From the NCBI RefSeq assembly GCF_001677475.2, contig NZ_CP015229.1: 64,000 nucleotides of DNA, one strand, 5' to 3'. The position numbers were made by a program. This DNA comes from Escherichia coli (GTDB lineage Bacteria; Pseudomonadota; Gammaproteobacteria; Enterobacterales; Enterobacteriaceae). Of this stretch, positions 27,001 to 39,000 are shown piece by piece. Numbering within the stretch: position 1 is the first letter of the stretch; the number at the start of each line of letters is the position of its first letter.

Positions 27001-30000
27001 GACAGGAGGTAAGACTGGCGGTGAGACAGGAGGTAACACAGGAAGTAAGACTGGAAGTAAGTCAAGAATTCGCCCAGCGTCTTCTGAGTAAAGGAATGTC
27101 TCGGGAAGACGTTGCAGAGATGGCAAATTTACCTCTTGCTGAGATTGATAAGCTGAGTAATTAAGTTGTCGGTATTATCAGTTATAGCCAGATAATTGTT
27201 ATTGTTAACTGACCAGATAATTAAGGGAACCTATGGACATAAAGACACGGAGAGAAACCAGGCAGACGTTGGCGCAGTGGTTTGAAGATAAGGGAAGACA
27301 AGAGGTAAGACAGGAATGCGCCCTGCGTCTTCTGAGTAAGGGGATGCTTCGTGAAGACGTTGCAGAGATGGCAAATTTATCTCTTGATAAGCTGATTAAC
27401 TAAGTTACCTGCGATATGAATAATCGCTTACAGACGTCATCGCCATGACGTGGGCAAATGAATAACTGGCGCCATCAGCCGTAGCGCCAGTTAAATATTA
27501 CGCCAGCTCGACCATTTTGTTGTCGATCAGGCGAGCGTCGCCAAGCCAGGCGGCTACCAGAATCACGGCGCGTTTGCTGTTTTCAGTGACTTCCAGCAAC
27601 GTGTCAGCATCACGAATCTGAATATCATCGGCGCGGAAACCTTTTTCATTCAGTTCTTGCCCTGCAATAGCAATAATCTCATCAAGATCCCGCTCTCCAG
27701 CCTGCAATTTGTCTGCAATCGAACATAAAACCTTGTACATACCGGGCGCAATTTTGCGTTGTTCTGCCGTCAGATAACCGTTACGAGAACTGAGCGCCAG
27801 GCCGTCTTTGGCGCGCATAATTGGCACACCGACAATCTCAATATCAAAGCCCATATCGGCAACCATTTTGCGGATCAGCGCCAGTTGCTGAAAATCTTTT
27901 TCACCGAAGCAGGCGATGTCCGGCTGGACAAGGTTGAACAACTTGCTAACGATGGTCGAAACGCCGCGAAAATGTCCCGGACGGCTGGCACCTTCCAGCA
28001 TGGTGGAAAGACCGGGAACATCAACATAGGTGTGGGTTTCTGTACCGTTCGGGTAGATCTCTTTTACTGATGGAGCGAAAACCAGATCCACTTTACGTTT
28101 GTTTAGCTTCTCGCAGTCTTCCTGCAAGGTGCGTGGATAGCGAGCCAGGTCTTCCGGGCGGTCGAACTGCATCGGGTTAACGAAAATACTGACGACGACC
28201 ACATCGGCGCGGGCTTTGGCTTCATCGACCAGCTTCATATGGCCATCGTGTAGATTACCCATGGTAGGCACCAGCGCCACACGCTTGCCTTCCATACGCA
28301 GGCGGCGGATTTGCTGACGCAGCAGCGGCAGAGTTTCGATAATTAACACAACGTGACTCCTTAATGGAAACTGTGTTCTTCGCCCGGATAAGCGCCGGAC
28401 TCCACTTCAGCCATATACTGCCGTACAGCAGCGCGGATGTCTCCCGCTTCGGCAAGGAAATTTTTGGCGAATTTAGGAATGTGGCCGCCGGTAATGCCGA
28501 ATGCATCGTGCATCACGAGGATTTGCCCATCGGTAACATTCCCCGCGCCAATACCGATAACCGGAATCGCCAGCGCCTCGGTAATACGTTTTGCCAGCTC
28601 AACCGGTACGCATTCCAGCACCAGCAACTGTGCCCCAGCGGCTTCTAAAGCTAAGGCGTCATTAAGTAAACGGTCGCCTGCATCGCCACGCCCTTGCACT
28701 TTATAACCACCGAAAATATTCACTGACTGTGGCGTTAAGCCCAAATGCCCACAAACAGGAACTGCGCGTTCGGTCAGCATTTGAACTGTTTCTACCAGCC
28801 AGGCACCGCCTTCGATTTTGACCATATTCGCACCCGCGCGCATGACAGTTGCGGCGTTTTCAAATGCTTGTTCAGGAGTGGCATAAGCCATAAATGGCAG
28901 GTCAGCCAGCAGCAGACAGTTTGGCGCACCGCGACGAACGGCGGCAGTGTGGTAGGCGATATCTTCCACAGTGACAGGGAGGGTGGAGTCATGACCCTGA
29001 ACCGTCATTCCAAGGGAATCCCCCACCAGCATGACGTTAATTCCTTCGTCGGCAAACAATTTTGCAAAGCTATAGTCGTAAGCAGTGATGGTGGCGAAGC
29101 GTTTTTTTTCCTGTTTACATTTTTGCAGCAGGGAAATGGTAGTTGGTTTCATAACGTGTCCTGATGGCTAATGTCAGATCTGTTGGCATTCTATCAGTCG
29201 TATTAAGGGGGGCAATCGTTTTAGTGGGTCACATCGTCAGTTGCCTGACGATGTGTTTGGCTTGTCAAGGGTAGGTAATCTGGAATCTGCCGGTGGCTTC
29301 GAAATCGCCTGCTTTAATCGTACTATTCCCGTCTTGCTTCAATGTCGCCTGAAATTCAAGGGGCTGTGTTGTGCCTTGACCTTTTCCGGGGTAAATTCCC
29401 CCTGATGAATCAATCTCGCTTTCATACGCTTTATAAACAGACGTTCCTACATTAGGCTCAAGAACCATTTTTCCATTAACACTGTTTTTTAAGCCTTCAA
29501 TAAGTACGCCGACGCCCTCTGCTGCACCGTTACCTTGCAGAGTATTGGCGAGTAACTTTTTATTCTGTTGCCCTATTTTTGCAGAGGTCATTTTGGTTTC
29601 AATATTTTGTACTCGAATACAGTTTTGCAATGTTATCTGAAAAGGCACAGGCGTTGCGCCATTTTTAATTTGACTGACTTCGTAGCTCCCCAGTGCGACA
29701 GTTGAGTTCTGGACGGTATCTCCTGTTACAACTGAAGAAAAACATGTAGGAAGCGATAGTTTTACATTACTTAAATTAAAGTTGATATAGATAGGTCCGC
29801 TGTATCCCTGGATACCTGCACCAGCGTCTTCGGCTTTAAAACGATAAATATAATCACTTGTGCTCAGTAATGTGATATTTTGGGTTGCTGTAGGCGCAAA
29901 CGTGGCATCTGTATAAAATTCAACGGTAAAAGTCTGGAATATTCCTCCTAACCCCCAAAATTGTGGATAGTTATTATCCATGTCTTTACATCTTCTTTCC

Positions 30001-36000: not shown

Positions 36001-39000
36001 ATGCTTTTAAATGGAAGTTCGCAACATGAGTGGTGGTGTCGAATGCTTCAGTGATCTGGTTGCTCGGGTTATTCACTTCGACCAGATTCAGTGCGCCAGT
36101 ATTATTTACATGGTGCAGAGCGATATCGACATTACCAGCTGGATCCTGAACTGAGCCATCATTACTCAAAGTACCCTGGTTAGAGTTATGGTACATAGAA
36201 CTGAAACTCATGACTGCGTTTTGAGCCGTTGCATTACCTGTCGCACAATCAACTTTAATATTAATATCTTCCGGGAATCCACCTGCAGCAGTTTTGCTCA
36301 TTGCCGGGACATCAGCAATTTGTGCAGTCTGTAGCATAACCGTAACGTCTTTACCGCCACCATTTATTGTCGTTACACAAGTACCAGCGGTAACAAAACC
36401 ACCGATATTCAACTGCCCACCGTCAACACCAGCCATTACTGAAACGGCTGAAAGGGAAGATGCTGCTAATACGATGGCAAGTAGCTTTTTGTTCATTAAA
36501 ATTCTCCATAAAAAAAGAGAGACGAATCAATAACAAATATTAATTTATTGTTATTCTACGTCTTCCAAAAACGCGGCAGAGACTAGCAATATAAGGATGA
36601 AAATAAAAATTGATGGTGTGAATGATTTGGGGTGATTTATTGATTTACCTTCCCTTGCATTCATCATTTGAATAGCTATTTATTTTAGAGCAAGCGGTTA
36701 GGTGAGTATAAGAGTGTTTATAAGGGTGGTTTGATTTGTAACTCATTGATTTTTTTAATTTTATTATTTTTCTTGTGATTGATTGTAGTGTGTCATTTTT
36801 ATTATATATATATTTTAGTGTGTCATTTTGTATGCATTAGTTTTTCTGTATTTACATATTAGATTATCTTAATATAAAGTTTAATATTATTAATATATAC
36901 GTTAATTTTCATGTGTTTTTTTTGCCCATTTGTGCCTTTCTTGGGGGAATCTCACTTTTTTTTGATCTTAATTATCTAAAAGAAGAAAGGAATTTTAACC
37001 ATAAAGATTATGACTGGCATATCAGAGGCAAGAACCAGATTACTGATGCGTATTTCACTACGCATACTAGCTTGAATAATTAGAAAGGGGAGGGTGATTA
37101 CCAGCGTGGTAAGGGACAAGAAGCATTGCTCGTTAATAAACTTTGCAATGTCTCTCCATCAGGGAAAATTAATTCCGGCGCAATCTCAAACAGCGGCCAC
37201 AGCATAAATCCACGATTTTTCATATCGTAGTGCGGAACGGTCAGGCGCTCGGTGTTAATCACCTGATTGCCAAACAACATAATGTCTAAATCGAGCGTGC
37301 GCGGCCCCCAGCGTTCGGCTTTACGGACGCGACCTTGCTGCAATTCAATACGCTGTGTGTGATTGAGTAACTCTTCGGGCGCGAGTGCGGTTTCCAGCGC
37401 CACGGCGGCGTTGAGGTAATCAGGTTGATCCTGCGGCCCCAGCGGTGGAGTGCGGTAAAACGAAGAAACGGCAAGAATGCAGCTTTCAGGGATATCACCG
37501 ATTGCTTTCACGGCAGCATTGACCTGCTCCAGTGGAGAGGCCAGATTGCTGCCTATGGCAATATACGCCACTGTCATGCGGTGCCCTCACGACGCGGCGC
37601 GCGTTTGCGTGGGCGACGAGTACGACGACGCGTTGACGGTTCCTCGTCCAGTTCGTTAAGCATCCCTTTTTGATCTGGTGGCGCGGAAACCTGGAACTCC
37701 CCCCACCATTTCACCAGACGCTGCAGTTCAGCGTTACGTTCAACTTCAGCTCGCAAGGCCAACAGGTCATAAGCCGCACGGAACTTAGGATGCTCCAGCA
37801 GTTTCCATGCGCGTTTACCCTGACGTCGGGACATACGCAACTGCAACTGCCAGATATCGCGGGTTAACGTCGTCAGACGTTTCGGGATTGCCAGTGAACG
37901 GCAGGCTTCGTCCAGCACGTCGTTCATCGCCAGCGCGAAAGCGTCGTGATAGGTCAGGCCACTCTCCTGAGCGATCTTCTGTGCCGTCTCCAGCAGCGGA
38001 TACCAGAACATGGCGGCAAACAAGAACGCCGGGTTCACACGCATATCGTTATGGATACGCGTGTCGGTATTCTTCAGTACCTGCTCAATAATGCGCTCCA
38101 TCGGACTGTCGCCATTTTCCGTGAAGTAACGGGTAATGGTCGGGAACAGCGGCTGGAACAGATGATATTCACACAGCAGTTTATAGGTTTCGTAACCGTA
38201 TCCCGCTTGTAGCAGTTTAAGAGACTCTTCAAACAGGCGTGCCGGAGGAATATCGTTCAATAAGGTAGCGAGGCGGGGGATCGGTTCTGCGGTTTCTGGG
38301 CTGATGCGCATCCCCAGTTTTGCAGCAAAACGTACCGCGCGCAGCATCCGTACCGGATCTTCACGGTAGCGCGTTTCCGGATTACCAATCAGACGGATAA
38401 CGCCGTCTTTCAGATCCTTCATGCCGCCAACGTAATCGCGAACGGTAAAATCCGCGACGCTGTAATACAGGCTGTTGATAGTGAAATCGCGGCGCTGGGC
38501 GTCTTCTTCGATGGAACCGAAAATGTTGTCGCGTAGCAACATGCCGTTTTGCCCGCGTTGGGAGGTTGTGCGGTCGCTGACGTTACCTTCGTGGTGTCCA
38601 CGGAAGGTTGCGACTTCGATAATCTCCGGGCCAAACATCACATGAGCAAGACGGAAACGGCGACCCACCAGGCGGCAGTTACGGAATAGTTTACGCACCT
38701 GCTCAGGCGTAGCGTTGGTGGTCACGTCAAAATCTTTCGGCTTTTTGCCAAGTAACAGGTCGCGCACGCCGCCGCCAACCAGCCAGGCTTCGTATCCCGC
38801 TTTATTGAGCCTGTACATTACCTTCAGGGCATTTTCACTGATATCTTTGCGGGAGATAGCATGTTGCTCACGCGGGATCACCGTCACCTGGGGACGGGCG
38901 GCAGCCTGTTCAGCCTCGCTTTCCTCGCGGCTTAGCACCTTGCGGCAAAAATTAGCGACTCGGGTAAAAATAGTACACCTCGGTAGTGTCAAACATCATT

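Follow-up and report, generated by a model that had tools for sequence, protein, structure and literature searches.

A 64,000-nucleotide stretch of the Escherichia coli contig NZ_CP015229.1 (RefSeq assembly GCF_001677475.2; hereafter the window) carries a seven-gene yad fimbrial operon of the chaperone-usher type on its minus strand (29265-36496), placed between panB (28361-29152) and folK (37098-37577) as in K-12. Sequence comparisons identify this operon as a Yad-type fimbria from a second deep lineage of Yad systems, which we term usher clade B, and a search of 5,426 complete RefSeq E. coli genomes did not recover this version of yad in any of them. We consider it probable that the operon, an intact member of the Yad/Sta family, was imported on a tract of ~12.6 kb that replaced the resident yad operon. 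The simplest reading of this tract is a single import by homologous recombination, ~12.6 kb in length (at most ~15 kb), from a donor resembling clade IV of Escherichia ruysiae.

Yad fimbriae are classified by locus position together with usher phylogeny (Wurpel et al. 2013; PMC3559732). By position the window operon belongs to them, as it occupies the folK-panB locus and retains the K-12 gene order yadN-yadV-htrE-yadM-yadL-yadK-yadC, that is, a major pilin, a chaperone, an usher, three minor pilins and a two-domain adhesin. All seven open reading frames (ORFs) are intact, and Pfam and NCBIfam searches recover the adhesin, three pilins, the usher with its PapC_N, Usher and PapC_C domains, the chaperone with PapD_N and PapD_C, and the major pilin. 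The operon also displays the features of classical chaperone-usher systems: signal peptides on all seven products, the usher domains, a PapD-like chaperone with the anchoring arginine and lysine (the motifs TRVIY and RIKLFYRP, read from the sequence as equivalents of PapD Arg8 and Lys112), and pilins with a cysteine pair and a C-terminal strand motif (C-termini ...TYN, TYE, TYQ, WYE and TYP). The YadN-like pilin, for instance, combines a signal peptide with the pair Cys40/Cys84 and the C-terminus ...TLTYN. The gene coordinates and product lengths given in the initial annotation were recovered exactly as maximal minus-strand ORFs, and the K-12 lengths it had given (412, 198, 201, 189 and 865 residues) are those of the K-12 operon. 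We nevertheless propose shorter models for two genes. The start of yadC is most likely the ATG at 30476, giving 403 instead of 405 residues, because an AAGGAG Shine-Dalgarno sequence lies five bases upstream and the same start is annotated in other genomes. Likewise, the chaperone most likely begins at the ATG at 35831, which has a GGAGA Shine-Dalgarno sequence upstream and yields 242 instead of 252 residues; it is preferred because the start of the 252-residue version sits within the T-tail of a hairpin.

The NCBIfam equivalog models divide the seven products into two sets. The adhesin, YadK, the usher and the chaperone pass the cut-offs of their Yad models: the usher scores 1388 bits against a cut-off of 830 with the HtrE equivalog PRK09828 (next model, 518 bits) and aligns end to end with the solved FimD and PapC, and the chaperone scores 360 against 285 bits with PRK09926 and matches the solved K-12 YadV (5GHU) in phmmer with E=3.8e-86. 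The YadN-, YadL- and YadM-like pilins fall below every equivalog cut-off. For the YadN- and YadM-like pilins the best models are those of the Salmonella enterica Sta system (StaA, 119 vs 230 bits; StaD, 119 vs 228 bits), while the YadL-like pilin obtains 115-144 bits with the YadL and StaE models, every one under its cut-off (YadL, 144 vs 206; StaE, 134-139 vs 213-414).

The initial annotation had proposed, from slightly different product lengths, a likely allelic divergence in the adhesin and the usher. The divergence itself is borne out, but it is neither slight nor centered on these two components. Protein identity to the K-12 counterparts is 52-53% for YadC, 49-52% for YadK, 39% for YadL, 37-39% for YadM, 60% for the usher, 59-60% for the chaperone and 40% for YadN, so that the polymerizing pilins YadN, YadL and YadM are the most diverged components and the usher and chaperone the least. 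By alignment, all seven products thus lie at 37-60%, far from the identity of over 99% that the annotation had named as incompatible with divergence. The similar product lengths masked the replacement of the whole operon. Genes outside the tract (yadG, yadH, yadI, yadE, panD, dksA, sfsA, thpR and hrpB) encode proteins 95-100% identical to those of K-12; in the adjoining genes the values are 97-100% for panC, panB and pcnB and 88% for folK, accompanied by marked nucleotide divergence. A megablast search with positions 29000-37000 gave no match among the 5,426 complete E. coli genomes, and a sensitive blastn search with the usher gene found matches in 5,218 genomes, none above 64.6% nucleotide identity. 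A source outside Escherichia, which the empty megablast result might suggest, was ruled out by the flanks, which are 96-99% E. coli-like.

The affinities of the usher indicate where this version of yad belongs. Protein searches return first its own cluster and then sequences at 80%, 78% (Escherichia marmotae), 69% (Escherichia sp. KTE114), 68% and 64% identity; E. coli HtrE and the ushers of Leminorella and Salmonella all stand at 58-60%, below these matches. A neighbor-joining distance tree was built from 17 sequences, with K-12 FimD and YehB as the root and 100 bootstraps. In it the window usher, those of E. marmotae and KTE114 and three further sequences form clade B in 100/100 replicates. 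Clade A, likewise recovered in 100/100, comprises the HtrE types of E. coli and joins Leminorella and the Salmonella Sta usher in 92/100; clades A and B are never united (0). The Yad/Sta usher group as a whole separates from FimD and YehB. Although NCBIfam assigns the window usher to HtrE, within the Yad/Sta group it falls in clade B and not in the HtrE clade, and this small distance tree points to an early split of clade B. The clade-B operons of E. marmotae (L013) and of the KTE114 type (L015) lie at the folK-panB locus with the same gene order; KTE114 represents cryptic clade III and H605 clade IV (PMC4700944). A pattern scan of GTDB species genomes, using just two N-terminal peptide patterns, found 3 loci.

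The case for import comes from the ancestry of the surrounding DNA. Informative sites are K-12-like up to ~25.8 kb, mixed across rpnC, clade IV-like from ~27.3 to ~39.9 kb and again K-12-like from ~40.7 kb, and gene-by-gene identity matrices agree with these site-by-site limits. In the left flank (20.4-25.8 kb) the window is 98.7% identical to K-12 and 90.3% to the clade IV genome L018. These relations are inverted in panC-panB (87.9% vs 97.5%), in the operon (~67% over the alignable 2.6 kb vs 98.6% over 7,231 nucleotides), in the region upstream of yadN (not alignable vs 98.0%) and in folK-pcnB-gluQ (93.3% vs 99.2%), and they are restored in the right flank at 40.7-44.4 kb (97.4% vs 91.0%). 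The same operon subtype is present in L018 and in strain 1-176-05_S3_C2 (L019), which the supplement of PMC10100065 lists under clade IV. Another yad subtype occurs in the clade III-type genome L015, whose panB, panC and gluQ are nonetheless 96-98.5% identical to the window alleles; these alleles therefore look native to E. ruysiae. As the mosaic is common to five independent assemblies at 98-100% identity, it is a feature of a lineage and not an assembly artefact. Assemblies GCA_019136195.1, GCA_018682815.1 and GCA_012665465.1 match the window at 100% over ~14-22 kb, and the locus that encodes GenBank proteins ANO87291-ANO87299, on a contig of 5.50 Mb, appears to be identical. A search of a plasmid collection gave no match and no sign of plasmid carriage. 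Against complete RefSeq E. coli genomes, the identity of the window peaks at 97.2-98.5%. This indicates an E. coli-like lineage that has no close relative among these genomes. Since a tract 97.5-99.2% identical to clade IV is embedded in an E. coli-like chromosome, wholesale replacement of the operon is the most likely explanation. Homologous recombination in the conserved housekeeping genes on either side would have exchanged the resident yad operon, a swap that would alter every surface-exposed component of the fimbria together.

These observations bear directly on the other explanations that can be offered. That the operon merely reflects ordinary allelic variation of E. coli yad, concentrated in YadC and the usher as the initial annotation held, might appeal to a gene order and product lengths close to those of K-12 and to the high variability of YadC within E. 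coli (PMC13245861). We consider it extremely improbable, as divergence extends to all seven products and is greatest in pilins rather than the usher, and the window usher sits in a clade without any E. coli HtrE type. Moreover, a 2026 survey found the major pilin, chaperone and usher of E. coli to be 80-100% conserved at the nucleotide level (PMC13245861), a range that the window usher does not approach in any of the genomes searched. It is also conceivable that the window derives from a non-coli Escherichia such as E. ruysiae and that the operon is simply its inherited ortholog, with no transfer having occurred. Identical or near-identical proteins are indeed found in genomes named E. ruysiae, in the clade IV strain H605 and in 1-176-05_S3_C2, but the sequence beyond ~27.3-39.9 kb is 97-99% identical to K-12 and E. 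coli VCSW5 and ~90-91% to clade IV, and the 64-kb window as a whole is 96-98% identical to K-12 outside the tract, which makes such vertical inheritance very unlikely.

A subtler possibility is that the clade-B haplotype is native to the window lineage and was acquired by clade IV, or that both have retained a balanced polymorphism of long standing. Across the genus, yad is a hypervariable locus, with ushers at the same locus 58-80% identical between lineages, and divergence in panB and folK climbs toward the operon, as long-term linkage predicts. However, panB, panC and gluQ of the tract group with both sub-clades of E. ruysiae, including the clade III-type one that has a different yad subtype, and a near-identical tract between flanks ~9-10% different favors recent exchange over retention; we therefore regard these alternatives as unlikely. 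Several considerations do weigh against the import of an intact operon from clade IV as we read it. The direction of transfer is deduced from three or four reference genomes and not from a population sample, and panB and folK may also owe part of their divergence to linkage with a locus under diversifying selection. The host lineage, at most 98.5% identical to complete E. coli genomes, may correspond to cryptic clade I, whose average nucleotide identity to E. coli is at least 95.9% (PMC10100065). Faster evolution of clade B could mimic an early split in a 17-sequence distance tree. Copies of this yad subtype in E. ruysiae-like genomes are decaying, in contrast to the intact one of the window: E69 (L005) has a 1-nucleotide indel in yadC, and L018 has a 1-nucleotide indel in the usher gene together with Q77* in yadM. 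Further, the yad operon of K-12 is repressed by H-NS and stays cryptic in the laboratory (PMC3559732, PMC13245861), and a promoter scan of the window found 18 sites where 17 are expected by chance; as promoter-like counts do not exceed those of shuffled controls, we claim no promoter.

The frameshifts and stop in E69 and L018 and the crypticity of K-12 yad, along with the 26-32% G+C of the upstream region, also speak for a vestigial operon that has fallen silent and no longer produces fimbriae in this lineage. We think this rather unlikely, given seven intact ORFs with Shine-Dalgarno sites and signal peptides, an operon kept essentially identical in the five independent assemblies, and ratios of non-synonymous to synonymous polymorphism (pN/pS) of 0.04-0.2 in every within-subtype comparison with more than ~3 synonymous differences. 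These low ratios suggest that the window operon is probably still functional, though few substitutions were counted, and L009 and L010, the nearest genomes, differ too little in most genes for estimates. Comparisons of this kind were restricted to members of the subtype because synonymous sites are saturated between subtypes. Applied to yadC, for which the initial annotation had proposed a test of non-synonymous against synonymous substitution, they point to purifying rather than positive selection: the two comparisons that offer 8 or more synonymous differences give pN/pS values of 0.07 and 0.10, and another, with a value of 0.57, comprises just one synonymous and two non-synonymous differences. 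Within the subtype, positive selection on YadC thus finds no support.

If the imported operon is expressed, homology to known systems predicts how its products would be assembled. YadN, YadM, YadL and YadK would be exported by Sec and complexed with the YadV-like chaperone by donor-strand complementation, then polymerized through the HtrE-like usher by donor-strand exchange, with the two-domain YadC placed at the tip of the fimbria. This proposal of donor-strand exchange draws on the Fim and Pap systems, as FimD and PapC align to the usher over its full length, FimC and PapD align to the chaperone, and a model of YadC matches FimH and PapG. Fim and Pap are themselves other fimbrial families, and we saw no fim-type invertible switch or recombinase genes with the window operon.

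Table 1. Positions in the window of the recombinant tract, the yad genes and the associated non-coding elements
Feature	Position	Strand	Content or basis
Recombinant tract of E. ruysiae clade IV ancestry	27300..39900		3' part of panC, panB, yad operon, folK, pcnB, most of gluQ
Hairpin with 11-bp stem right after the yadC stop; possible operon end	29230..29255		No T-run on the yad strand
yadC-like two-domain tip adhesin gene (403 aa)	29265..30476	-	NCBIfam PRK09723.1-1, 511 vs 391 bits; maximal ORF 29265-30482 (405 aa)
yadK-yadC spacer (196 bp)	30477..30672	-	49 bp in K-12
yadK-like minor pilin gene (192 aa)	30673..31251	-	NCBIfam PRK15262, 225 vs 132 bits
yadL-like minor pilin gene (194 aa)	31283..31867	-	Protein identity to K-12 YadL
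yadM-like minor pilin gene (186 aa)	31880..32440	-	Pfam Fimbrial
htrE-like outer-membrane usher gene (863 aa)	32463..35054	-	PapC_N, Usher, PapC_C
yadV-like periplasmic chaperone gene (242 aa)	35103..35831	-	PapD_N, PapD_C; maximal ORF 35103-35861 (252 aa)
Hairpin with T-run between major pilin and chaperone genes; candidate attenuating terminator	35865..35890	-	11-bp stem TAAGAGGCTGT/ACAGCCTCTTA, then TTTATGATTTTGCGTTTTT
yadN-like major pilin gene (192 aa)	35918..36496	-	Pfam Fimbrial
AT-rich region upstream of yadN (601 bp); presumed promoter/silencing region	36497..37097	-	Composition (~26-32% G+C)

The non-coding parts of the operon also differ from those of K-12 (Table 1). The region upstream of yadN is without nucleotide homology to its K-12 counterpart of 369 bp and contains two copies, 30 nucleotides apart, of the 18-nucleotide direct repeat ATTnTAGTGTGTCATTTT. 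Its AT-richness makes it a plausible H-NS target by analogy with E. coli (PMC13245861), and the region may be silenced by H-NS as in that species. The hairpin that follows yadN is a plausible attenuator, which would probably increase the ratio of the major pilin to the assembly proteins; in the scan as a whole, terminator-like sites showed no excess over shuffled sequence. The spacer between yadK and yadC, 49 bp in K-12, contains just one ORF of 49 codons, called by some annotations. We considered whether it might be the scar of a lost first adhesin gene of the E. marmotae type and rejected this, as it has no homology to the spacers of E. marmotae-type operons. A search of positions 26000-40500 against Rfam detected no RNA family.

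The adhesin consists of a lectin domain (approximately residues 23-240) and a pilin domain (approximately residues 241-403). As a sequence search of the PDB with YadC detected no solved homologue, we turned to a fold search with an AlphaFold2 model (predicted local distance difference test score 91, predicted template modeling score 0.81), which matched the two-domain adhesins FimH, LpfD, CupB6, FocH and PapG. The lectin domain is the more diverged in every comparison, as published for E. coli: its identity to K-12 YadC is 46-48%, compared with 61% for the pilin domain, and to the nearest other subtypes 61-68%, compared with 82-86%. Beyond this subtype, protein searches place the nearest YadC cluster at 74% identity and every named cluster of E. 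coli, Escherichia fergusonii and other Escherichia at 49-57%. Binding of xylose and annexin A2 has been reported for E. coli YadC (PMC13245861, PMC6921372). Among close relatives of the window, residue 220 (numbering of the 403-residue protein) is the sole position of YadC that changes recurrently, being alanine in the window, serine in L009 and L018, and threonine in L010.

Placed beside the known systems of this locus, the window operon shares with the Yad fimbriae of K-12 and of extraintestinal pathogenic E. coli (ExPEC) the genomic location, the seven-gene order, the domain content and a two-domain adhesin with the more variable lectin domain, and departs from them in protein sequence, in the deep clade of its usher and in the length and sequence of its spacers. 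The Sta fimbriae of Salmonella enterica (staA-G) are regarded as the counterpart of Yad at the same locus (PMC3559732). The best models for the YadN- and YadM-like pilins point in their direction, but the window usher is only 58-59% identical to Salmonella ushers, and the latter group with E. coli HtrE. Closer in the usher are the clade-B operons of E. marmotae (clade V) and of the clade III, KTE114-type E. ruysiae, with ushers 78% and 69% identical to that of the window, respectively. Even there the pilins are just 38-60% identical to those of the window, and the clade III adhesin is just ~25-30% identical to its YadC.

E. marmotae-type operons differ further in having an extra adhesin gene upstream of the yadC counterpart, which brings the operon of L020 to 8 genes. 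In L020 (6607-9316) the two tandem adhesin genes are both intact, encoding proteins of 423 and then 407 residues, the latter 71% identical to the window YadC, whereas in L013 (12390-14412) the second survives as 5' and 3' fragments. The window YadC corresponds to this second gene. E. coli VCSW5 (L024, 30284-36809), among the closest complete genomes in the left flank, has a six-gene yad operon with two minor-pilin genes, another sign of structural variation at the yad locus.

The kind of system described here is fully known: the architecture is unchanged, no new mechanism is involved, and the sequences are already public under generic names. What appears undescribed in the literature that we searched is the occurrence within the genus of a second deep lineage of Yad at this locus, the presence of different yad subtypes in clades III and IV of E. 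ruysiae, and the passage of a whole operon from E. ruysiae to an E. coli-like lineage. Recent work presents Yad fimbriae as a virulence factor of ExPEC (PMC13245861). Yad has been treated as a conserved, core-associated adhesin of E. coli, and typing schemes and estimates of prevalence depend on a single reference usher with a threshold of at least 80% identity; Ellison et al. 2026, for example, counted a genome as a carrier when its usher matched HtrE of EC958 with identity and length coverage of at least 80% each (PMC13245861). The window usher is 58-60% identical to all E. coli HtrE clusters compared (EC958 was not among them), and the operon would therefore be scored as Yad-negative under this definition, which illustrates how complete operons can be missed. 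An entire organelle, comprising the major antigen, the adaptors and the lectin, would be replaceable by one recombination event from a sister species, and this bears on adhesin typing, on vaccine or anti-adhesion ideas based on YadN and YadC, and on gene flow between E. coli and the cryptic clades.

More broadly, we incline, if only slightly, to the view that folK-panB is a genus-wide locus for fimbrial cassettes, in which at least two usher lineages, split as deeply as or more deeply than Yad and Sta, occur and whole operons are exchanged across Escherichia species. Under such a scenario, cassettes would be exchanged by homologous recombination through the housekeeping flanks in a manner resembling O-antigen clusters, and the window would capture one such exchange, in which clade IV of E. 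ruysiae was the donor and an E. coli-like lineage the recipient. The major antigen and the adhesin would be replaced together, and strains with a complete, selectively maintained Yad-type fimbria would be typed as Yad-negative by E. coli-centered schemes.

Some further observations concern the borders and interior of the tract. Its left junction lies in or beside rpnC, a gene for a recombination-promoting nuclease (26244-27497, with the spacer between rpnC and panC). This zone is of mixed ancestry and is ~80% identical to K-12 at 27.0-27.5 kb; a causal link between rpnC and the junction is speculation. In the 5' half of pcnB (37500-38000), E69 and the otherwise near-identical L009 differ from the window by ~4%, with 23 synonymous and 0 non-synonymous differences, and this patch suggests a further small recombination inside the tract. 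A second strongly polymorphic spot is found at yadI/yadE (23853-25586), where the window is K-12-like (97-99%) and the alleles of L006 and of the E. ruysiae-like E69, L018 and L015 are just 74-83% identical at the nucleotide level.

Elsewhere in the window, two tandem ORFs of 94 and 96 codons lie upstream of pdhR on the plus strand (178-462 and 870-1160). From inspection by eye of their products (…HPSGSDLIFYP…IVKEWRRSQGLPLFK), we presume a resemblance to the immunity proteins of colicin DNases and pyocins. Positions 1-1425 have no blastn match in the corresponding region of K-12. At the opposite end of the window (63827-63956), yaeI of K-12 (184257-185069) is apparently missing, with ~840 bp of K-12 sequence represented here by ~130 bp.

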